Made by a program: the position numbers and the translations under genes. Shown here in pieces: positions 6,448-52,616 of a stretch of 64,000 nucleotides of DNA. The stretch is taken from IMG/VR virus record IMGVR_UViG_3300035698_018106, positions 102,717-166,716 of that record; one strand, 5' to 3'. Numbering within the stretch: the stretch's first letter is position 1; each line of letters opens with the position of its first letter. Below the pieces are notes generated by a model that was not told the DNA's origin, did not search any database, and saw only the letters and a program-made list of their open reading frames with translations. The stretch is from a virus.

Positions 6448-6481
6448 ACAAAGTAGTTTATTTTATATATCCAATAAAAAA

Positions 6482-6526: not shown

Positions 6527-9076
6527 TTAACCACACCTTGAAAAACTACAAGATGTACAATGAACACACCCTTCTTCTCTTATTAAATCAGCTTTACAAT
6601 CAGGACATTTCTCTTCTAATTTTACAGATTCTTCATATCTGCTCAAGTATCTCCTAACAACTGATGAAAAAGAAGTAATATTTTCATCTATTTTTTTAAT
6701 TACATTATTAACATGAGATATAGGGGCACCATGACGCAATAACATAGAGGCAGTTAACGTTAATATTTTAAACTCAATTCTATCTGCGGCTATTTGAAGT
6801 TCTTCTATTTCAAATTCACCATTAATAAACTTATAATGTCCTTTTTTAACTTTGATAATCTTACCTGTTGTGTTTTTAAGACTTGGAGGATTCTCAAACC
6901 CCATTATTTCATAAGGTCTATTAGTTCCAGGCCATTTACCTATAATAACAGCAAAATCTCTTCCATCTGCTTTAGCAGCATAATAATCTGCTTCTAATTC
7001 TTTAGGTCTTTTTGGTGCATTTGATTCTGGAAATTCTTCTATTTCATTTGTTTCTTCTTTTTTACTTAATATAACACCTGTTCTAGATCCTTCTCTATAA
7101 ATAGTGCAACCTTTGCATCCGGCTTTCCAAGCTTCAAAGTATATATCATTAACTTCTTTCTTAGTTGTTTGTGATGGTAAATTATGAGTTACTGAGATTG
7201 AATGGTCAATCCATTTCTGAATAACACCTTGCATTCTTACTTTTTCTAAATAATCAATTTCATGAGATTCAGATCCTGCCCAAGGAGATTCTTTTATAAT
7301 ATCATTTAAATTAGATTCAGATAAACCATTAAGATAAATATCAACATCAATTATTTCTTTTCCTTCTTTAGTAGTTTTATACCATTCTAAGAATGTAGTA
7401 TGTAAAACATTAAATTCTTCCCATGAATCACCATTTTCATCAACAAAATCAATTTTAACAGTAGGATCATTAGGATTAACTTTTTTCCTTCGTAATGATA
7501 TAATTTTAAATACAGGCTCTATACCTGAAGTGGTTTGAGATGCTATTGCTAATGTACCAGTTGGAGCAATAGATAATGAAGCGATATTTCTTCTACCATA
7601 TTTTATATAATCCTCATATTCTGCAGTACTAAAATTAGCAGAAATAATTCTATTAATGAATGGATTATTAGATTCTTTATCGTAATTCCATATAGGAAAT
7701 GCTCCTCTTTCTTTTGCTAATTGAACAGTTTCTTTATAACAACTAACAGCTAGATTTTTAAATATTTTATCGATGAATTTAGTAGATTCTTTAGATCCAT
7801 ATCGCATACCTAATTTAGCTAGCATATCACCTAGTCCTAATACACCAATACCGGTTCTTCTTCCATTTCTTAGCACAGTCAAAACATTATTCCATGTTTC
7901 CAACTCAACTCTTTTTAATAGTTTAGCTTCCGGATCTTTTTTAATTTTTGCTAAAATCTTCTCTATTTTTTCTTCTTCTAATGATACAATATCATCCATA
8001 GTACGTTGAGCAAATCTAGCAGTTTTTTCTAATTTAGCCCAATCTATTTTAGCATTTTTCTTAAATGGATTTTTAACATGATTTGATAAATTAAGTGATC
8101 CTAATCTACATGAATCGTAAGATGACAAAGGAACTTCGCCACATGGATTTGTTCCTTTAGTTTCGAATCCTAAATCTGCATAACAATCTGATGGAGATTC
8201 GGATATTATTGAATCCCAAAATAAAATGCCTGGTTCTGCATTTTTATGGGCCATTTCAATAGTTTTATCCCATAATTCTTTGGCTTTTATCCTTTTTATA
8301 TACATACCATTATCTAATTTATGAATAGCATCATATGGTGTTTGTATATCAATTTTAGGTTGTTTGTTTGTTGTTGGCCAATGTAGAATATAATCTTGAT
8401 CTTGTTCAACAGCTTTCATAAACTCATCAGTTACTTTAAGAGAAACATTAGCTCCAGTAACTTTAGATAAATCCGCCTTTTTAATAACAAATGTAGGGGA
8501 ATCTGGATGATTAACATGCATACTAATCATTAATGCTCCCCTCCTACCGTCTTGTGCAACTTCTCTAGTTGTGTTTGAATATCTATCCATAAATGAAGGA
8601 GCGCCGGTTGAAGATTGGGCTGAGTTATTAACATAACTGCCTATAGGTCGAAGATTTTCTATAGTAATACCAACACCTCCTCTTCTTTTCATTAATTGTG
8701 CAATTATTTCATCAATATTAATAATTGCGCCATAAGAATCAGAGTTATTATCTATAAAAAAACAATTTCCAAGAGATGACATTTGGTAATTATTTCCTAA
8801 CCCAAATAATATAGACCCTCCATAAATGAAATTTCCAAATCCTTTTAAATTATCATATATCTCTTCTTTATTAAGAGGGTGTGGATATTCTTGTTCTTTC
8901 CTAAAAATCTCATTTGTTATTCTATTAATAGTATTATCAGGCATTAATTCTATAAACTTTCCTTTTTCTTTAAGTGCATACTTATTAATCCAAACTTGTG
9001 TTGCTAAATTATCACCCTTAAAATAAGGTAAAGTAGCATCATTAAGTTGATCAATTGTATAGGTTTCATTAGTCAT
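6527..9076 (-). CDS. nrdJ: ribonucleotide reductase, class II (adenosylcobalamin-dependent, monomeric NrdJ-like) with a C-terminal Zn ribbon
   Basis: 849 aa. Active-site motif TNPCGEVPLSSYDSCRLGSLNL (the class II NPCGE...CxLGSxNL pattern). Glycine-rich GGVGI segment. C-terminal CPDCKADLIREEGCVHCTSCSFSRCG. Confidence 0.8.
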   Translation of the reverse strand: MTNETYTIDQLNDATLPYFKGDNLATQVWINKYALKEKGKFIELMPDNTINRITNEIFRKEQEYPHPLNKEEIYDNLKGFGNFIYGGSILFGLGNNYQMSSLGNCFFIDNNSDSYGAIINIDEIIAQLMKRRGGVGITIENLRPIGSYVNNSAQSSTGAPSFMDRYSNTTREVAQDGRRGALMISMHVNHPDSPTFVIKKADLSKVTGANVSLKVTDEFMKAVEQDQDYILHWPTTNKQPKIDIQTPYDAIHKLDNGMYIKRIKAKELWDKTIEMAHKNAEPGILFWDSIISESPSDCYADLGFETKGTNPCGEVPLSSYDSCRLGSLNLSNHVKNPFKKNAKIDWAKLEKTARFAQRTMDDIVSLEEEKIEKILAKIKKDPEAKLLKRVELETWNNVLTVLRNGRRTGIGVLGLGDMLAKLGMRYGSKESTKFIDKIFKNLAVSCYKETVQLAKERGAFPIWNYDKESNNPFINRIISANFSTAEYEDYIKYGRRNIASLSIAPTGTLAIASQTTSGIEPVFKIISLRRKKVNPNDPTVKIDFVDENGDSWEEFNVLHTTFLEWYKTTKEGKEIIDVDIYLNGLSESNLNDIIKESPWAGSESHEIDYLEKVRMQGVIQKWIDHSISVTHNLPSQTTKKEVNDIYFEAWKAGCKGCTIYREGSRTGVILSKKEETNEIEEFPESNAPKRPKELEADYYAAKADGRDFAVIIGKWPGTNRPYEIMGFENPPSLKNTTGKIIKVKKGHYKFINGEFEIEELQIAADRIEFKILTLTASMLLRHGAPISHVNNVIKKIDENITSFSSVVRRYLSRYEESVKLEEKCPDCKADLIREEGCVHCTSCSFSRCG

Positions 9077-9118: not shown

Positions 9119-10555
9119 TTAAATAGTAGCTTTTAATCTTCGTTCTTTAATTTTTTGCAATTCATCCATCTCAATATCTGCTCTTTGAGATGTCTTTTTA
9201 GCCACTTTTCGTTGAGCATAAAAGTTAGCTAATATTTCTGGTATTAATGGTTCAAATGACGCGTCAAAAACAGCTCCAGATGAACATTTTATTTGATTAT
9301 CATTAGTTTTATAAAGTTTATCTTTGGTTATAAAATTCTCTATAGATATCATAAATTGTCTCATGATAGAAGGATAAAGAGATGCAAAGTCAAAAGAAGC
9401 TACCCAACCATATAAACCAGGTACAGGCTCAAATACAAAAGCTCCTTCGAATTGTTCTCTTTGTTTCTTATCCCATATTTTCGGAAATACTTGTTTCCTT
9501 TTATATGCATATCTAGATAAAGTGGCTTCCAACATTTGTATAGGAGAAAATGCATTCATAGCTTCAACCTGAGTAATATTTCCAAGTCCTAAGAAGGTAC
9601 TCATGGTTTTCAACTTTTCGTCCATTAATTCAACAAGAACAGAATCAATAGCATTATAGAAAACATATAATTCATAATCTTTATTAAACAATTCTTGAAA
9701 TGTTCCACCATATTTAACTTTTCTAATTCCGGTAGCTGCTTCAGCCACAAAATCTAATGTATTATTTTCCTTTACATCAATTGTTCTATCCCATTTCATA
9801 TAAATGGACATATAATCAACAATTAATTTATGTTGAGGAAGCATGATAGTCTTTGTTTTACCTCTGTCTTTTATTCTGTGTTCATACCATTGTCCGGTGG
9901 GTGACATCCAAGATATATCCATTCCTAATCTTTTTGTACATCTATTATAAATATACAACCAATCATATCCCCAAAAATTCCACCCTGTTATAAGAGGTGC
10001 TGTTCTAGCATAATTATATAACCAATCATATAACATATCAGCTTCATTATCATATTGTTTATAAACAAATTTATATTGTCTATCGTATTTGTCAATATGT
10101 TTATTAATGCTTTTTTCTATTCTATCGCATTCTTCACCCGATAAAGGTTTTAAACCAAATACTATGATATCCGGATATCTAACCCATGATATTGAATTAA
10201 TTCTATTTTTTGCCTCATCAGCTCCTGGAAATCCTTCATCAGTAACATCTACTTCAATATCACAAGCATATAATTTAGGGAGATTACGTTCGAATAAATG
10301 TTTTGTGTTAGCTTCGCCTGCATCCATAAAAAATTCTTGAATTCTGTGTTTATCAAGAAATTGTGATGGTCTTTTTGAAACTGGTTTATTGTCCCATGAT
10401 TTAATACCAGGAACAGCTTTACTTTGTTGATTAGTATATGAATAAGAATATTGGTGGTTTGAGGGTATAGCTAATTGAGAAAAAGCTACTTCACCTTCTT
10501 TATTAATGTATGAGACGACCATACGTCCTTGTCTTTGTTCTATATTTATTACCAT
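9119..10555 (-). CDS. DNA polymerase, family B, T4 gp43-like: N-terminal fragment (3'-5' exonuclease domain through polymerase motif A) only
   Basis: 478 aa, collinear with T4 gp43 residues ~100-470. Matches: LYACDIEV (Exo I; T4 VANCDIEV), ITGWNFWGYDWLYIYNR (T4 FTGWNIEGFDVPYIMNR), FYNAIDSVLV (Exo II; T4 YNIIDVESV), FEGAFVFEP (T4 FPGAFVFEP) and SFDFASLYPSIMRQ (motif A; T4 SFDLTSLYPSIIRQ). The ORF stops before the KxxxNSxYG and YGDTDS motifs. The RNR start codon lies 42 nt downstream. Confidence 0.8.
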   Translation of the reverse strand: MVINIEQRQGRMVVSYINKEGEVAFSQLAIPSNHQYSYSYTNQQSKAVPGIKSWDNKPVSKRPSQFLDKHRIQEFFMDAGEANTKHLFERNLPKLYACDIEVDVTDEGFPGADEAKNRINSISWVRYPDIIVFGLKPLSGEECDRIEKSINKHIDKYDRQYKFVYKQYDNEADMLYDWLYNYARTAPLITGWNFWGYDWLYIYNRCTKRLGMDISWMSPTGQWYEHRIKDRGKTKTIMLPQHKLIVDYMSIYMKWDRTIDVKENNTLDFVAEAATGIRKVKYGGTFQELFNKDYELYVFYNAIDSVLVELMDEKLKTMSTFLGLGNITQVEAMNAFSPIQMLEATLSRYAYKRKQVFPKIWDKKQREQFEGAFVFEPVPGLYGWVASFDFASLYPSIMRQFMISIENFITKDKLYKTNDNQIKCSSGAVFDASFEPLIPEILANFYAQRKVAKKTSQRADIEMDELQKIKERRLKATI

Positions 10556-18885: not shown

Positions 18886-18952
18886 TGTATAGTATCTTTT
18901 ATTTTATATATTCTATATATTCGTGAAAATATTAATAGTTGTATTAGTTTTG

Positions 18953-19270: not shown

Positions 19271-19310
19271 TCCGAATCAATTTTATTTTATATATTTAAG
19301 CTAGAATCTT

Positions 19311-25045: not shown

Positions 25046-25504
25046 TTAGTATAAAACTAAAGTATTTGGGTCATTATGGTCATATTCAGGATCAATTACG
25101 AATCCTTGTTTTATAAAAGCTTCTTCAGCATCATTTGTGAATGGGTGAAGTATAATAGGCAATTGATATTTTGTTTTTAGAAAGTTAAATACCTGTTTAC
25201 TTATGCTAAATCCTCTAAATTTATATCCAATATAGATCCAGTTTATAATAATATCTTTTGTTCTTATTTTATAATCTATAACACCACATACTATATCATT
25301 ATTATAAATTACAAAAATATTAGTTCCTTTGACAGAATCTAATATCATTTCATCTGTTTCATTGGTATAATCAAATTCTGAATCTATAAATTTTTCTGAA
25401 TCCTTAAAATTTTTAACTAACTTGATATTATTTATTAATTTCGCTCTCATTTTATTCCCATCCTTTTTGAACATCTGGAGAGAAGTTCGCATACGAAAAT
25501 TCAT
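25046..25504 (-). CDS. hypothetical protein (possible GNAT-like fold). The true start is probably an internal Met (ATG at 25450-25448), which avoids the overlap with the upstream gene.
   Basis: 152-aa ORF. IGYKFRGFSISKQVF weakly resembles GNAT motif A. The 5' 53 nt overlap the upstream CDS in another frame. Confidence 0.35.
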   Translation of the reverse strand: MNFRMRTSLQMFKKDGNKMRAKLINNIKLVKNFKDSEKFIDSEFDYTNETDEMILDSVKGTNIFVIYNNDIVCGVIDYKIRTKDIIINWIYIGYKFRGFSISKQVFNFLKTKYQLPIILHPFTNDAEEAFIKQGFVIDPEYDHNDPNTLVLY

Positions 25505-27317
25505 CTCTAGATACTAACTTAACTACATTACCATTTAAATCACTACATGCAAAACCCTCTTGATTAGTTTTCTTTAAATCTCCAGATTTCATCTTAAGAT
25601 AAGTTTGGAATTTACCAATATTATTAAGTTTACTTATAAAGATTTCTTTTAGATTTGAAATTTCAGATATCATATGTATAATATATATCCATTCTTTATT
25701 TGATTGCTCTATAGCGTCAATCATCTCGGCAAATCTAACTATAACTTTATTTTGTCCTTTTTCAGTTTTAAGTTTACCTGCTTCCATTAACGATCTATTT
25801 TGAAGGAATTCTATAAATTCTGCAAGAACACCTTCTATCGAATTAAATGAATTAATTTTTACATTAGCTTTAATTAAAGAGTTCTGATAAATGTTAAATA
25901 ATTTTATAAGCTTTGTTGATTTGATTATATCATGATAATTAGTAGATATTTTAAGTGTTTTACCTATTACATTTAGATCAGTTAAAATAATTTCTATTTC
26001 TTTAGATTCTTCTTCTGTAAAGTTTATAACCCCTGCAAATGACTCAATATAAGGGTCTGTCATTAACATATTATCAATACTTGTTAATTCGGAAGATTTA
26101 GCATCATAACTAGCGCTAACATTTTCTAAATCTTTTCCTGTATATCTAGTATGCCATGTAATACCTATATCTGCTTTATTTATAAGATTTCCTAAATCTG
26201 ATTTTTTAGGTATAACATAATAAATAGTGTTTGGATGAAATGCCCAATAAGGTTCTCCTTCTATTTCGGCATCTTGTAATGACATATCATCAAATAAGAA
26301 ATCACCTTGCCAAATTTCTCCTTTTGGAAGATTAATTTTATCTATGTATTTTAGAAATGTTTTTAATTTATAAACTAATTGAGGTCTTTCTCCTAATTCA
26401 GATTCTATTTCAGCAATTGTTGAAAATACTTTTGGAGATTTTGAAAAAAGTCCTTTCATTGCAATACCATTATCTGGTAATCCTGGAAATTTAGACCATG
26501 CAAATATAGCAGGGGCTCCATCTATCTTTACAGAAAGACTCATATCTTCTTTTTTAGTTGAACCCTTTAGATCATTATATAAATTATTAAACATTTTTAG
26601 AACCCAATCAATTCCCTCTACTCCACCAAGTAATACTAAATCCTCAGCATGTGTCATATGCTTATTTACTTTTGATACTATAGTAGATTCATCTAATTTA
26701 TTAGACCCACCTAAATATTTCCATATATTTTCTATTTGATTTACTGAATTTTCAGGATATCCTGAAGCAAAACCTTTAAAATCGTCATTTTTGATATCTT
26801 CTCTTAATATAGATGCAGAAATTAATTCACCTTGATGTGGTCCATTTTTAAATTTCATAGGATCTACATCAATTACTAATTCAACTATTTCAACATCTTT
26901 AGGTACTCCATCAAAATATTTTCCTCCAGGTTGATTTTGTGTAGTAAAATCAACTACTCTTTTATAATCATCGCCTTTTGTACTAGCTCCTAACGCATAA
27001 CGACCTGGAGGTAAATCTTCAACTGCTTTATATGCAGTCAAAATAGGTGATGGATATTTTGATTTTTCTATAGATACATTAGAGATATGATTAGTAAGTT
27101 CTTTAGCAATCTTTACTCCTAAATCTTGACTTATTCCATCTCGTTCTTTAGGACCAACTATTACTTTAACTTCTTTTACATTTGGATGTTGAGCATATCT
27201 ATAAATTAAATCCAGATGAGCTCCTGTTGTTGGTTTAAACCCGCCCGGAATCATAATTATGATATCTGGTGGGTTTTTTGTTTTATCCCATTCTTTAATT
27301 GTCAGAAATCTTTTCAT
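25452..27317 (-). CDS. Two-domain protein: an N-terminal cytidylyltransferase-fold nucleotidyltransferase domain (NMNAT-like GxFxPxTxGH) and an Rnl1-like RNA ligase domain
   Basis: 621 aa. IIIMIPGGFKPTTGAHLDLIYRYA matches the (H/T)xGH nucleotidyltransferase signature. LSVKIDGAPAIFAW at ~residue 262 resembles ligase motif I (T4 Rnl1 ILTKEDGSLVSTY). AEIEGEPYWAF...YYVIPKKSDLG resembles Rnl1 motifs IV and V (EGYVAV...KIKSDWY). Confidence 0.45.
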   Translation of the reverse strand: MKRFLTIKEWDKTKNPPDIIIMIPGGFKPTTGAHLDLIYRYAQHPNVKEVKVIVGPKERDGISQDLGVKIAKELTNHISNVSIEKSKYPSPILTAYKAVEDLPPGRYALGASTKGDDYKRVVDFTTQNQPGGKYFDGVPKDVEIVELVIDVDPMKFKNGPHQGELISASILREDIKNDDFKGFASGYPENSVNQIENIWKYLGGSNKLDESTIVSKVNKHMTHAEDLVLLGGVEGIDWVLKMFNNLYNDLKGSTKKEDMSLSVKIDGAPAIFAWSKFPGLPDNGIAMKGLFSKSPKVFSTIAEIESELGERPQLVYKLKTFLKYIDKINLPKGEIWQGDFLFDDMSLQDAEIEGEPYWAFHPNTIYYVIPKKSDLGNLINKADIGITWHTRYTGKDLENVSASYDAKSSELTSIDNMLMTDPYIESFAGVINFTEEESKEIEIILTDLNVIGKTLKISTNYHDIIKSTKLIKLFNIYQNSLIKANVKINSFNSIEGVLAEFIEFLQNRSLMEAGKLKTEKGQNKVIVRFAEMIDAIEQSNKEWIYIIHMISEISNLKEIFISKLNNIGKFQTYLKMKSGDLKKTNQEGFACSDLNGNVVKLVSRDEFSYANFSPDVQKGWE

Positions 27318-30468: not shown

Positions 30469-30497
30469 GATCCTATTTTATTTTATATATTCGACTT

Positions 30498-45854: not shown

Positions 45855-46499
45855 TTATGATATTGTATAATTTCCTTGAGATTCTTTCACAATCCAAGAA
45901 GGACCATATGATGCATCATATGCTATTATTATTAATTTCACCCATCCACCTGCTACAACCTCAGAATGTGTCATTGTAAGTATATCATCACCTCCGTCAA
46001 ATGATCTAGTTAATACTGTAAAATCATCAATACTAGTTATACCAGGATTAAACATTATTCTTACTTCCTGACCTAAATTACCATTTTGTAATCCATAATC
46101 TAAATCATTACCTATTTTAATATAAGGCGTATCGATATCTATAAATGAATATCCAGACTTTTCATATGGCCAAATTGGATTAGTAGATGTGTCAGATGTT
46201 GCAATTCGTGTTGATGTATCTCCTTCATTATAAGTATTGACAAAATCCATATCAATAGTTGTAGTGTTTTCATACCAATTAGTAAATTGTTGTTTAACTG
46301 TTAAATTATCTGTAATTACATTAACAAATTCTCCTGTTGATCCTTTAATTCTACCAGATGTAACTACTGGTTTAATAAGAATTCCGGAAGATTCATCATA
46401 GAAAACATCAAGCGATCTTTCTACATTAGTAAAATTATCATTCCAAATTTTTGGAATAAGAGTTATTAAAGTTTTTAATGATAGACGAGTCCAGTCCAT
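45855..46499 (-). CDS. virion structural protein (first gene of the leftward structural operon)
   Basis: 214 aa. The GGATATATAAAATAAAA motif lies 9 nt upstream. Confidence 0.45.
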   Translation of the reverse strand: MDWTRLSLKTLITLIPKIWNDNFTNVERSLDVFYDESSGILIKPVVTSGRIKGSTGEFVNVITDNLTVKQQFTNWYENTTTIDMDFVNTYNEGDTSTRIATSDTSTNPIWPYEKSGYSFIDIDTPYIKIGNDLDYGLQNGNLGQEVRIMFNPGITSIDDFTVLTRSFDGGDDILTMTHSEVVAGGWVKLIIIAYDASYGPSWIVKESQGNYTIS

Positions 46500-46505
46500 A
46501 ATATT

Positions 46506-46522
46506 ATTTTTATTTTATATAT
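46506..46522 (-). promoter_or_regulatory. conserved 17-nt motif GGATATATAAAATAAAA (candidate late promoter, similar to T4 TATAAATA)
   Basis: Exact 17-mer shared with 52600-52616. A 15-mer match is at 6458-6472 (minus). Confidence 0.4.
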
Positions 46523-46641
46523 CCTTTAAAATAAAAGTAGTACCCTGTATATTGAAATTTTTTTTAAAAACACCACATTAAATACTATTCACATAGATAT
46601 ATAACTAAAATAACTTATTATAACATCAAACGCAAAATAAA

Positions 46642-47850
46642 ATGATCAAACAAGAATTTAATTGGGAAATGTATAACGACGGATATACAGGAAATAAACT
46701 AGTTTCCAATATGAAAATCATAGGTTCAGATAATATTAAAAGCAAGTGTTTTTCACGAGAACCATATGCTCAACGCCTTTTTGACACATATACAAATCAA
46801 AGTGGGAATATAATCAAAAAGGATTTAAATAAAGGGGATTGTGTTTTAGTTAATGATATTTTCAATATAACTAATGAAACAATAGATATAGAAATAGCTG
46901 GAGGAATGTCGGTTACTATAGATCTTAAAAGAGAAAAAAGATTTCTACAAATGTTTGGATTTAACGATATTTCCGATTTTTCAGAAAAAATATCCAGCAG
47001 ACCTTATTTAGACAAATTATTAGAAGAGAATTTAAAGGCATATGTAATTGAAGCATCTCCTTCAATTAAAATTTCATTATGGCAAGGATATCTAATGGGA
47101 ATTAGAGAAGAGTTTATGGATCAAATTAATAATCCATCAAAAGCATATAATTGTAAAGTTAAAGAAGCTAATAAAGGCGGATTCTTTGTAGAAGTCCAAG
47201 GTTTAGATGCTTTCATGCCAGGTTCATTAGCAGCTCCTAATAAAATAAATGATTTTCAATCATATGTAGGTAAAGAAATAATTGTTATGGTAGAAGATTA
47301 TCTTAATGATATGAATTCTTTTATTGTATCTCATAAAAAATATATTAAACATATATTACCTCAAAAACTATCTGAAATAGATACCATGGTAAAGCATTCC
47401 GGTAAAGTAACAGGCGCATCAAAATATGGAATATTTATAGAATTTGGAGAATTTTTTACTGGATTACTTCATGAATCTAAAATGACAGAAGAAACAAAAG
47501 CTTTATTCAAAGCATGGCATTATAAACCAGGCGATCCTATTGAGTTTTATGTTGGGGAAATTACAAAAGATCTTAGAGTTATTTTAACCGAAGAAGATCC
47601 TCAAGTAAAATTAGCAAAAATACAAACCTTTGTAGTTAATAACGCAAATAAAGTGGTTGAATCAAAAATTGTTGCTATAATGAAATTTGGTGTAATTGTA
47701 AATGTTGATGATGTTACAGGATTAATTCCATTAAAAGAATTTAAAAAACATAGAATATTTATTAATAACTTTATAGTTAATGATACTATAAAAGTAGAAT
47801 TCGACGAATTTAATGAAGATAAGATTTTGTTTAAGTTAGGTGGAGTTTAA
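46642..47850 (+). CDS. S1-domain RNA-binding protein (at least three, probably four, S1/OB repeats; bS1-like)
   Basis: 402 aa. Repeats: KVKEANKGGFFVEVQGLDAFMPGS; HSGKVTGASKYGIFIEFGEFFTGLLHESKM; VESKIVAIMKFGVIVNVDDVTGLIPLKEF. Each fits the S1 signature G.V......G.FV......GL.H.S. Confidence 0.55.
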   Translation: MIKQEFNWEMYNDGYTGNKLVSNMKIIGSDNIKSKCFSREPYAQRLFDTYTNQSGNIIKKDLNKGDCVLVNDIFNITNETIDIEIAGGMSVTIDLKREKRFLQMFGFNDISDFSEKISSRPYLDKLLEENLKAYVIEASPSIKISLWQGYLMGIREEFMDQINNPSKAYNCKVKEANKGGFFVEVQGLDAFMPGSLAAPNKINDFQSYVGKEIIVMVEDYLNDMNSFIVSHKKYIKHILPQKLSEIDTMVKHSGKVTGASKYGIFIEFGEFFTGLLHESKMTEETKALFKAWHYKPGDPIEFYVGEITKDLRVILTEEDPQVKLAKIQTFVVNNANKVVESKIVAIMKFGVIVNVDDVTGLIPLKEFKKHRIFINNFIVNDTIKVEFDEFNEDKILFKLGGV

Positions 47851-47860
47851 TAAAAATAAA

Positions 47861-47893
47861 GGTGTATAGTCATAATGTCTGTACACCTTTTTT
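47861..47893 (+). terminator. rho-independent terminator
   Basis: GGTGTATAG / CTGTACACC stem followed by TTTTTT. Confidence 0.6.
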
Positions 47894-47930
47894 ATTTTGA
47901 ATAAATAAAATAAACAAATATTTATCTTGT

Positions 47931-50121: not shown

Positions 50122-51921
50122 ATGTCTATAATAAGATCTAATATAAATGAAAGTCCGGACGTATATGAATTTGAAAAAAACAAAATGATTTCATGGAATG
50201 ACGCAGATGCTTATCCCATTGGTGTAAATGATATAGGAGAGGTTGGATTTGGAGTAGAAAGCACAACTCATAGATATATTGATAAAAAATATCCAAATTA
50301 TCAAGGTAGAGTTTGGCCTAAATCAAATGTTGTTACTTTTTGGGATTATCCACCCCAACGTTCGATAAAGTCTATAGTTAAACAACTAGCTTTAGAATTT
50401 AAAGAAATAGATATTAATACATTAAAAATTGAAATTGATCATCCAATTAATTTCTGGGAAACTTATACATTAGATACTTATCCAAATATAGGTCAAGATA
50501 TAGAAAAATTCAAAAGAAATAATAGAAAACAACATCAATTGTCTCCTTTAAAAAAATCTAAAGATAGAATAGTTCCAGATGGGTTAGGATCAAAGAAAAA
50601 AGCATTTCCTAAACATCTTAAACCTTTTGAGAGTGTACAAGAGAATTTAAATGAAAGTCCGGACGAAATATATCAATATCAACCATATAGAAAAACTATA
50701 GCAGTTTGGAATAATCCAGATGCTAGAGCATTTGGTATTATTAATAGTAAAATGTATGGTACTATTAGATCATCAGGATCTCATGCGGATATATTAGAAG
50801 ATAATAATTTAGGTAAAGAAGGTTGGATGGCAAGAGCACAATTCAAATATCCAGGTAGAATATGGCTTAAGAAAAAATTAATTACGTTTTGGGTATATCC
50901 AGAAAATATTAAAAAATTAGAAGAAATTATAAAAGAATTAGAGATTTTATATAAACAAGATATATGGAATGATAATGAATTTAAAATTGAAATTAATAAA
51001 ATAGATAAAGAAGATATTCCAAATATGAACAAAGATTCCAATGCGGCCTGGGTTATGTTTAATGAAGAATCAGCTGATATTATACCTCTTAAAGATTATA
51101 ATGGATCAGTAGATCCAACTGGAATTAATAAAGATCATATAAAATCCCCATTAAATAAAGATAAAAAAATTATTCCAAAAGGTACTGGATCTAAACGATA
51201 TGGTTCTAAAAAACCATTAAAATATAGACAATCTATGTATGCTGAAAGTGTTCAAGAGAATTTACTTAACGAAAATCCAAATAATATTATAAAACCTTCA
51301 ATATGGAAACAACATAAAGATGATGTTAACTATACCCCATCATATACTATAGAATATGATGAAGAAGGAAATATTCCTTTTGGATATTATGGAAAAGATA
51401 AAGTTTTTATATTTGGTGAAGATGATGATTCTCATCATGATTTACATGCTAACATAAAATCATTAGAAGCAGAAGAAATAGAAGAAAGAGGTAAAAATTC
51501 TGGGAGAGTATTTACTTCAGAAAAAGTGATATCTTTTTGGATATATCCAAAAGATAATGCAGAATTAATTAAAGTAATCAAAGATATTGAATCTCATACA
51601 GGATTGCATATATTGAATGATCCTAAATGGTTAATAGAAATACCAGATGGAATATTTAAATCATCTTTATATAAAGATGATACATCTAATAGTGGTTGGG
51701 GTACATGGTATCCTAGAGTAGGACAATTACGATTTGTTCCAGTTTCTGAATATAAAGGGGATCATAAAAGATCTGAAAAAGAACTTAAAACTCCCCATAC
51801 TAAAATAGGTAAAGGAGAAGGGGCTCAACAATATCATTCTTCTAAAGCATCTTCTGGTAAATTTAAAGCAGAATGGAGACATAAAATGAATAACGAAAAC
51901 TTCTACCCAAGATTAACATAA
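50122..51921 (+). CDS. protein of three tandem ~180-aa homologous domains, each ending in GR(V/I)(W/F)...(V/I)(T/S)FW(D/V/I)YP. Function unknown.
   Basis: 599 aa. Repeat anchors: NESPDVYEF...GRVWPKSNVVTFWDYPP; ESVQENLNESPDEIYQY...GRIWLKKKLITFWVYPEN; ESVQENLLNENPNNII...GRVFTSEKVISFWIYPKDN. Confidence 0.5.
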   Translation: MSIIRSNINESPDVYEFEKNKMISWNDADAYPIGVNDIGEVGFGVESTTHRYIDKKYPNYQGRVWPKSNVVTFWDYPPQRSIKSIVKQLALEFKEIDINTLKIEIDHPINFWETYTLDTYPNIGQDIEKFKRNNRKQHQLSPLKKSKDRIVPDGLGSKKKAFPKHLKPFESVQENLNESPDEIYQYQPYRKTIAVWNNPDARAFGIINSKMYGTIRSSGSHADILEDNNLGKEGWMARAQFKYPGRIWLKKKLITFWVYPENIKKLEEIIKELEILYKQDIWNDNEFKIEINKIDKEDIPNMNKDSNAAWVMFNEESADIIPLKDYNGSVDPTGINKDHIKSPLNKDKKIIPKGTGSKRYGSKKPLKYRQSMYAESVQENLLNENPNNIIKPSIWKQHKDDVNYTPSYTIEYDEEGNIPFGYYGKDKVFIFGEDDDSHHDLHANIKSLEAEEIEERGKNSGRVFTSEKVISFWIYPKDNAELIKVIKDIESHTGLHILNDPKWLIEIPDGIFKSSLYKDDTSNSGWGTWYPRVGQLRFVPVSEYKGDHKRSEKELKTPHTKIGKGEGAQQYHSSKASSGKFKAEWRHKMNNENFYPRLT

Positions 51922-52599: not shown

Positions 52600-52616
52600 G
52601 GATATATAAAATAAAA
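52600..52616 (+). promoter_or_regulatory. conserved 17-nt motif GGATATATAAAATAAAA (candidate late promoter) 4 nt upstream of the gp25-like start
   Basis: Exact repeat of the motif found upstream of the 45855-46499 gene. Confidence 0.4.

Follow-up and report, generated by a model that had tools for sequence, protein, structure and literature searches.

We analysed a bS1-like gene in a 64,000-nucleotide stretch of viral DNA (IMG/VR record IMGVR_UViG_3300035698_018106, positions 102,717 to 166,716; hereafter the window). The results show that its product carries tandem S1 domains in the order of ribosomal protein bS1 of the Bacteroidota, shares with that protein a short aromatic motif at the N-terminus, and belongs to a family found on phage contigs only, whose gene keeps a fixed position and its own leader and terminator. 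The reading that we favour, and hold to be moderately probable, is that the protein is a phage surrogate of bS1, which would dock at the bS1 site of the host ribosome, act on the A-rich leaders of phage messages and thereby shift the choice of mRNA.

A phage relative of ribosomal protein bS1

The open reading frame (ORF) is real and lies exactly where the original prediction had placed it. That prediction had read three consecutive segments of the product as S1 repeats, suspected a fourth near the N-terminus and likened the whole to a truncated bS1. The three segments map to residues 179-195, 262-281 and 349-367, and a search with the Pfam S1 RNA-binding domain, PF00575, recovers three stretches (E=3.8e-22, 78.9 bits against a cut-off of 22). 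Every profile and fold search ranks bS1 first. The top 11 matches in NCBIfam are models of 30S ribosomal protein S1 (E=1e-20 to 4e-11), the best of them NF005208 (E=1e-20, query residues 166-393 against profile positions 107-339), while single-S1 proteins of the GSP13/CvfD type, and PNPase, rank next (E of about 1e-6 to 1e-7). Sequence searches of the PDB with phmmer and hmmsearch place bS1 on top, down to E=1e-27, as does Foldseek with the predicted model (bS1 9gut_B, E=2e-17); the fold matches also take in NusA, PNPase, Tex, Rrp5 and exosome subunits.

The repeats did not fall into another family of the oligonucleotide/oligosaccharide-binding (OB) fold, such as PNPase, RNase E or the cold-shock proteins, nor did they go undetected. 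In the Pfam and NCBIfam searches the S1 protein gave no RNase E or cold-shock domain match and no additional domain, and the PNPase models cover a single S1 stretch. PHROGs offers no family for it (best E=0.11). The suspected fourth module is found as a diverged S1 fold, visible in the structure model only.

Since its scores lie far under every curated bS1 equivalog cut-off, we describe the protein, by sequence criteria, as a diverged phage paralogue of bS1 and not as an rpsA orthologue. In length and in number of S1 domains it resembles the short cellular S1 proteins, that is, the four-domain type of low-GC Gram-positive bacteria (NF005208/PRK06676) and the three-domain cyanobacterial/chloroplast type (PRK07400). 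It differs from them in its score (74 against 368 bits), in an N-terminal motif of Bacteroidota type, and in the absence of its family from the cellular genomes scanned.

Domain architecture

An AlphaFold2 model built from 45 family members (mean predicted local distance difference test, pLDDT, 81.7) presents four beta-barrel modules, a to d, connected by long linker helices (Table 1). The N-terminal 60 residues are modelled with low confidence and contain a short helix at 8-11 and the helix at 41-51. Taken alone, the N-terminal 165 residues have no significant PDB or NCBIfam match, and in the PDB searches the N-terminus of the family profile fails to align with domain 1 of bS1.

We compared the modules one by one with the six domains (D1 to D6) of Bacteroidota bS1 using hhalign. 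Module b matched D2 alone (97.8%, remaining domains below 10%) and aligns with residues 113-171 of Escherichia coli bS1 and 138-197 of Flavobacterium bS1. Because this domain type is peculiar to bS1, the origin of the protein is placed in bS1 and not in a generic S1-domain protein. Module c matched D4 (97.7%) and D5 (97.1%), with D3 less well placed, and aligns with E. coli D4 in the PDB searches; the matches of module d are weak (D1 80%, D3 78%). A global alignment of the phage family with 79 Bacteroidota bS1 sequences (99.4%, E=6e-21) is colinear from the N-terminal motif on, pairing motif with motif, a with D1, b with D2, c with D4 and d with D5, and the likeness to a truncated bS1 is therefore apt.

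The RNA-binding positions are those established for the S1 fold. The full set of module c is invariant or nearly so across the family. In module d the RNA-binding face has I352 where the second Phe would be and P363 where the His would be; module d is thus degenerate in these residues, and so is module b, like D1 and D2 of bS1. Conservation reaches 0.89 in module b, 0.81 in the second N-terminal helix, 0.74 in the aromatic motif and 0.72-0.76 in modules c and d (0.72 in d). The putative ribosome-binding half is thus the most conserved, in module b and the second helix, which speaks for the bS1-surrogate reading. In bS1, D2 serves protein-protein docking, not RNA binding.

An N-terminal motif shared with Bacteroidota bS1

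The window protein starts with MIKQEFNWEMYNDG. Across the family the motif reads FNWxxYEDG, where F6 and W8 never vary in the alignment and Y11 and G14 hardly do. For comparison, 80 Bacteroidota bS1 loci were retrieved with a fragment of PDB 9zcd_A, a Flavobacterium bS1, and 79 bS1 genes were compared. All 79 carry F[ND]Wxx[YF]ExG just ahead of domain 1, as in NFNWHNFEEG of Flavobacterium, DFDWEAYEKG of Paludibacter and SFNWEKYEQG of Maribacter. When the N-terminal parts alone are aligned locally by hhalign, a 12-residue motif block is the sole significant match (P=4.6e-4 with 165 against 125 columns, 8e-6 with 62 against 48). A strict regular expression for the motif is positive in the window S1-type ORFs, in 30 viral-locus ORFs and in the 79 bacterial genes, and has zero further matches in about 615,000 residues of six-frame ORFs. 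In the second helix E40, Y42, A43 and Q44 are invariant, and the global alignment sets it against the second helix within residues 1-42 of bS1.

Nothing in bS1 of E. coli or M. smegmatis corresponds to residues 1-42 of Flavobacterium bS1, the alignments beginning at D1; as a general bS1 feature, the motif was rejected for these two, the ones compared. In the cryo-electron microscopy work of Roy et al. (NAR 2026) on the F. johnsoniae 30S subunit, bS1 was modelled over residues 4-40 as a helix-loop-helix stably associated with uS2 and uS8, and the aromatic helix FLANFNWHNF (positions 11-20) was used to fit the bS1 density (PMC13000457). This N-terminal density is fragmented without bS21, and bS21 and the bS1 N-terminus are functionally linked in F. 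johnsoniae (PMC13000457).

Given the match in the motif and the missing counterpart in E. coli and M. smegmatis, the phage protein appears to have the same ribosome-docking element as bS1 of the phylum that the phage probably infects, an element particular to that lineage. At the level of the sequence motif, then, a putative ribosome-anchoring helix is present ahead of D1. The N-terminal segment that holds it combines low pLDDT with high conservation, as is expected of a region that folds on a partner.

Initiation regions and the S1 transcription unit

As the original prediction had noted, the genes in the window are poor in Shine-Dalgarno (SD) sequences: an SD core at -18..-4 is found in 4 of 55 genes, against 6.3% of random positions, with no enrichment. 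Upstream adenine peaks at -3 (0.60), -6 (0.62) and -11/-12 (0.78/0.64), and hexamers of the AAATAA type show an enrichment of about 8-fold over the 30 nucleotides (nt) that precede starts (30 of 58 genes, about 3 expected). Such A-rich, SD-less leaders are the initiation style of the Bacteroidota.

The leader of the S1 gene is specific to it. In an alignment of 30 loci (A2), an (A/G)ATATATAA box at about -50 to -40 and the leader AAAC(T)AAAATAAA at -15 to -3 are conserved and the first codons are not. The leader columns are invariant or nearly so, with A at -3, -6, -12 and -13. A regular expression for this leader finds 25 of 39 non-redundant S1 genes as opposed to 2 of 457 other genes of the same loci, and the region is unstructured, with a minimum free energy of -0.7 kcal/mol. 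Adenines at such positions are reported to enhance initiation in F. johnsoniae (PMC13000457). The promoter-like box of the S1 gene is conserved in the same alignment and has the core ATATATAA in common with the boxes of 11 other window genes; we treat all of these boxes as putative promoters.

Downstream of the gene stands a strong hairpin, which folding and comparison bring out and for which a consensus terminator scan found no site. Most relatives carry a hairpin and T-run at the same place, built of unrelated stem sequences. A sub-threshold match of the Rfam trpB motif on this hairpin (47832-47898, plus strand; 26.9 against 59 bits, E=0.45) was taken as chance. With its own box, gene-specific leader and terminator, the S1 gene is therefore a self-contained unit. 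The strong terminator and separate transcription unit of the original prediction are supported by the hairpin and T-run and by the comparative conservation of terminator and leader. Its further claim, that the gene heads the baseplate operon, holds in position only, as the gene forms a monocistronic unit and is followed by genes that are neck-like or lack a known function.

The window has the organisation of a T4-like large myovirus, with genes for ribonucleotide reductase, the N-terminal part of a family-B DNA polymerase (PolB), a UvsW-like helicase, a tail fibre with S74 chaperone domain, a gp25-like protein and a gp6-like wedge protein. In essentially all of about 50 related loci the order is a 214-aa gene (minus strand), then on the plus strand S1, a 473-aa gene and a gp13-like 244-aa gene, and further on the gp25-like and gp6-like genes, so that the S1 gene holds a fixed position between tail-fibre and neck/baseplate genes. 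Such strict synteny, together with the OB folds present in some baseplate hub proteins, would suit a virion or morphogenesis component, for instance a tail or neck assembly factor made of OB folds. We regard this as very improbable. Searches by sequence and by fold lead exclusively to RNA-binding S1 proteins, headed by bS1, and the residues of the canonical RNA-binding face do not vary. The gene is insulated by its own terminator, and the homologue in Lak phages lies outside a structural neighbourhood; phage bS21 sets a precedent for ribosomal-protein genes inside structural modules.

Two further observations concern this locus. In relatives, homing-endonuclease-like genes of the GIY-YIG/NUMOD3 type are inserted variably among the S1, gp13-like and gp25/gp6-like genes, so that the distances between these genes differ from locus to locus; the window is free of such insertions in this region. 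Both GC skew and AT skew change sign near 46 kb, with the switch of coding strand at the S1 divergent junction, and change back at about 59-60 kb.

A diverse family on phage contigs

A word-indexed search returned 377 clusters at 90% identity, the best 120 of which are 397-417 aa long and 56-76% identical at 97-100% query coverage, on contigs of up to 405 kb. An exhaustive profile search returned 4,159 proteins at E<=1e-3 and at least 200 representatives (50% identity) at E<=1e-30. The best 150 representatives are mostly 330-430 aa long and none has the size of about 600 aa of cellular bS1. By a loose regular expression, F[DN]W is present in about one third of the full-length superfamily representatives, with close variants in several more, and a second motif, KVY[SC]HE.YAQELYD, which marks the second N-terminal helix, is common to nearly all. 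The superfamily has subgroups (P0123, P0126, P0130-P0132 and others; L002 8941-10050). One of them begins at this second motif, as KVYCQE.YAQELYD, and is without the FNW helix. Another comprises three-module versions of about 335-370 aa without module d, for example that of Lak-C1.

The family has 50 loci in IMG/VR. One genome per species from 185,579 bacterial and archaeal species contained no member, in a scan that relied on two family peptide patterns; dependent on those patterns, this supports a restriction to phages. The exact protein is absent from a large protein collection, its best relative being 76% identical. Among deposited phages, tblastn matches are confined to Lak-A/B/C (36-38% identity over residues 6-317) and to LR756500-504 and LR745206 (26-35%), the latter being genomes of 460-735 kb from Al-Shayeb et al.; megablast of the 20 kb around the gene found nothing in deposited phages, and the window has no nucleotide-level match there.

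The PolB fragment of the window ranks the same relatives first (Lak 38-39%, LR756500 37%), followed by Chryseobacterium and Flavobacterium phages and Sphingomonas phage PAU. Because this ranking is the same, the S1 gene was probably inherited together with the core genes of the 'Mahaphage' lineage. Bacteroidetes hosts are predicted for the Lak/Mahaphage genomes, and the window phage probably infects Bacteroidota. The Lak-C1 homologue, of 369 aa, has the motif GSFNWTPYEDGWNG, an acidic C-terminal tail and a non-structural gene neighbourhood.

The protein is shorter than cellular bS1 and falls under the family cut-offs, as would a recently captured host rpsA fragment that decays without function. 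The conservation pattern effectively refutes such an origin, as judged from the sequences: the family has hundreds of diverged full-length members with many invariant residues, synteny and cis elements are conserved, the species scan gave no close cellular homologue, and the S1 protein and the DNA polymerase have diverged from their Lak counterparts in parallel.

A possible role in mRNA choice

On the bS1-surrogate reading, the FNW helix and the D1/D2-like modules would dock at the bS1 site of the 30S subunit of a Bacteroidota host, in the uS2/uS8 region, a site that host bS1 occupies weakly and reversibly. The docked protein would bring modules c and d into contact with single-stranded, A-rich, SD-less phage leaders near the mRNA exit channel. 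Initiation would then shift toward phage messages, probably in late, structural-protein synthesis. The A-rich leader of the S1 gene itself may be a high-efficiency initiation region, an autoregulation site, or both.

Several points weigh against this. The bS1 equivalog cut-offs are missed by far (74 against 368 bits for NF005208, 72 against 577 for TIGR00717), S1 domains are common in non-ribosomal proteins, and module a matches no bS1 domain significantly by sequence, D1 included, in the hhalign comparison. The match in the motif spans about 12 residues only, and about half of the representatives of the wider superfamily are without FNW in the called protein, which may be an artefact of start-codon choice or gene calling, or a real loss. 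The conserved loop between the N-terminal helices exceeds that of host bS1 by about 25 residues, and this insertion could alter or prevent docking of the host type. Moreover, module c alone has a complete canonical RNA-binding face, so that the protein could weaken mRNA capture instead of enhancing it.

The frequency of S1 domains outside the ribosome leads to a different proposal, namely that bS1 ancestry serves RNA binding only and that the protein acts off the ribosome, as an mRNA chaperone or stabiliser, a cofactor to a ribonuclease of phage or host, or a factor in transcription elongation/antitermination. Host S1 activates T4 RegB, and S1 domains are put to a NusA-like use. S1 domains occur in many non-ribosomal proteins, with NusA, PNPase, Tex, Rrp5 and the exosome among the fold matches here; the scores stay far under the bS1 equivalog cut-offs, and the Lak-C1 gene stands among non-structural genes. 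Yet this leaves the kept docking motif and the D2-type domain, the most conserved parts, without explanation, and no nuclease, RNA polymerase or KH domain is fused or consistently adjacent. We consider an off-ribosome function fairly unlikely.

The incomplete RNA-binding faces also bear on what docking might achieve. As a decoy, the protein would dock at the bS1 site, displace host bS1 and block host mRNAs that need full-length bS1, while unstructured A-rich phage leaders would still initiate, with host shut-off as the outcome. The docking evidence behind this is the same as for the surrogate. Two residues of the RNA-binding face, the second Phe and the His, are missing from module d. The phage protein has no equivalent of D3, of D6 or of one of D4/D5, and its ribosome-binding half is better conserved than its RNA-binding half; the phage initiation regions are A-rich, and the S1 leader, the one that was folded, is unstructured. 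On the other hand, the RNA-binding set of module c is complete and invariant and module d is conserved (0.72), which argues for RNA contacts having been kept. We hold a decoy to be unlikely; it is a variant of the surrogate reading and not an independent explanation, and inhibition and redirection look alike on present evidence.

A bolder form of the surrogate reading seems to us possible, and we offer it tentatively. A very diverse family of mini-bS1 proteins, confined to phages and numbering at least 200 clusters (50% identity), would make phage-specialised Bacteroidota ribosomes through exchange of the loosely bound host bS1 at uS2/uS8, every member bringing its own version of the bS1 docking helix particular to the host phylum. 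The smaller number of RNA-binding domains would retune start selection to leaders of the AAAATAAA type, and the gene's own invariant leader, AAACUAAAAUAAA-AUG, would be both the cognate high-affinity site and an autoregulatory operator. The rpsA gene is autoregulated in bacteria, which the proposed autoregulation through the leader mirrors. If true, the virus would encode a determinant of mRNA choice that works by ribosomal-protein exchange.

Relation to known systems

Al-Shayeb et al. (2020, Nature 578:425) reported a 'possible rpS1' in huge phages that rarely have an identifiable SD, proposed that it acts in initiation, 'on or off the ribosome', and noted that a true rpS1 is hard to confirm (PMC7162821). 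The idea of a translation bias, which the original prediction also put forward, is thus not new, having been proposed for huge phages in 2020. Those genomes, of the Mahaphage clade including Lak, encode direct homologues of the window protein, with the same DNA polymerase ranking and the same proposed role in initiation. The phages are alike as well, being very large and AT-rich with predicted Bacteroidetes hosts and few SD sequences, where size in our case is taken from family contigs of up to 405 kb. The Lak version differs in having three barrel modules in 369 aa, no module d (matches end at residue 317) and a non-structural neighbourhood. Full-text searches of the literature found no description of the docking motif or the family anatomy; the D2-type domain, the gene-specific leader and the fixed synteny were likewise not found for Al-Shayeb et al.

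With Bacteroidota bS1, represented by that of F. johnsoniae (9zcd_A), the phage protein has in common the aromatic helix, the second helix and the order of the tandem S1 domains, the D2 signature KGG..V.V.GIEAF.PGS ... VSHK, canonical RNA-binding S1 domains, and a setting of SD-less A-rich initiation. Bacteroidota bS1 has 590-770 aa and six domains, whereas the phage protein has 402 aa and four modules, without D3, D6 and one of D4/D5. The phage protein also differs in its loop insertion of about 25 residues, in a D1-like module that its sequence does not reveal and that has an insert of three helices, and in its occurrence on phage contigs only.

The nearest precedent is phage bS21 of Bacteroidetes phages, whose gene is part of a structural module and shows late expression by metatranscriptomics (Chen et al. 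2022, ISME Commun; PMC9723584). Both are small-subunit, initiation-related genes of large Bacteroidetes phages in a conserved structural region, and phage bS21 was proposed to substitute into host ribosomes, giving phage transcripts an advantage late in infection. They differ in that phage bS21 closely resembles its host counterpart and the S1 protein is strongly diverged and shortened, and in that late expression was seen for bS21.

Mizuno et al. (2019) had left proteins with S1 domains out of consideration as ambiguous, because S1 domains are common in non-ribosomal proteins. The D2-type domain, the Bacteroidia-type anchor motif, the gene-specific leader and the fixed synteny, which we add here, answer the earlier ambiguity and make the hypothesis testable. 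How start codons are chosen without SD in the Bacteroidota is an active question, with bS1 the suspected reader of upstream adenines, and the entry of phage-encoded ribosomal proteins into host ribosomes is largely untested. The family offers a compact natural bS1 with a recognisable docking motif that matches the helix visualised on the F. johnsoniae 30S subunit, and the FNW motif may serve as a host-phylum marker for uncultivated megaphages.

Feature coordinates and other observations

Table 1 Positions of the S1 gene, its modules and cis elements in the window, and of inserted genes in related loci.
Feature	Position	Strand	Remarks
Coding sequence, phage bS1-like protein	46642..47850	+	402 aa, ATG start, double TAA stop; stop included
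Promoter-like box GATATATAACTAAAATAA of the S1 gene	46596..46613	+	Family consensus AAATATATAAnATATAAAATA; about -52 to -30 from ATG
A-rich 5' leader / initiation region AAACGCAAAATAAA	46628..46641	+	Family consensus AAACTAAAATAAA; adjoins start codon
N-terminal aromatic motif FNWEMYNDG, aa 6-14	46657..46683	+	Matches docking helix of Bacteroidia bS1
Second helix of N-terminal helix-loop-helix, EPYAQRLFDTYT, aa 40-51	46759..46794	+	Conservation 0.81; helix 41-51 in both models
Module a, aa 64-145	46831..47076	+	Diverged S1/OB barrel, three-helix insert aa 99-128; position of bS1 domain 1
Module b, aa 166-230	47137..47331	+	bS1 domain-2-type S1 domain (KGGFFVEVQGLDAFMPGS); best-conserved part of the protein
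Module c, aa 248-316	47383..47589	+	Canonical RNA-binding S1 domain; Y262, F265, H277, D310, R312 conserved
Module d, aa 336-399	47647..47838	+	Generic S1 domain, degenerate RNA-binding face; best Pfam stretch 335-394
Intrinsic terminator, hairpin 47860-47888 then TTTTTTATTTT	47860..47898	+	Folding free energy -17.2 kcal/mol, z=-5.2
Promoter-like box GAATAAATAAAATAAA of the next gene (473 aa, start 47931)	47899..47914	+	Directly after terminator in most relatives; opens new unit
Promoter-like box GATATATAAAATAA of the divergent 214-aa gene (45855-46499, -)	46510..46523	-	Exact match, 11 nt from that ATG
Recurring box copies	6458-6471(-), 18899-18912(-), 19283-19296(-), 30478-30491(-), 46510-46523(-), 47899-47914(+), 52601-52614(+), others		
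Homing-endonuclease-like inserts in relatives	L001 16885-17589; L133 11231-11872, 14903-15754, 18075-18893, 21130-21218		

The box TGAATA(T/A)ATAAAATAAA recurs in the window, where copies with 0-1 mismatches end 7-14 nt before an ATG. A looser form lies upstream of at least 11 window genes on the coding strand, its 3' end about 8-25 nt from the ATG. A scan with the 14-mer GATATATAAAATAA at up to 2 mismatches found 25 copies against 15.2±3.8 expected, a weak enrichment, and only gene-adjacent copies with 0-1 mismatches were used from it. The box often directly follows a hairpin and T-run and resembles a T4-late-type promoter (TATAAATA), a reading under which leaders would be very short. Alternatively, the box could belong to the initiation region.

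No tRNAs were found in the window. Stop-codon recoding, as reported for Lak phages, has no role in it, its ORFs being long and uninterrupted in the standard code at 93% coding. Within the block of the S1 gene, a 599-aa protein (50122-51921, plus strand) has no Pfam or PHROG match and is the least conserved, at 27-40% identity in 18 of 52 loci. It contains three internal repeats of at least about 45 aa (GRVWPKSNVVTFWDYPP, GRIWLKKKLITFWVYPE and GRVFTSEKVISFWIYPK), each followed by I(E/K)I. A 621-aa protein (25452-27317, minus strand) matches DUF6267 (E=2e-67) and phrog_455, both of unknown function.

The PolB fragment is a 478-aa ORF (9119-10555, minus strand) that covers the exonuclease domain and the first ~130 positions of the polymerase profile, and the next gene downstream is the large subunit of ribonucleotide reductase (6527-9076, minus strand). 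Because the profile is partial and this gene adjoins, the polymerase looks split, and its remaining part would be encoded at another site. The 478-aa ORF is matched by Lak phages over 97-98% of its length.

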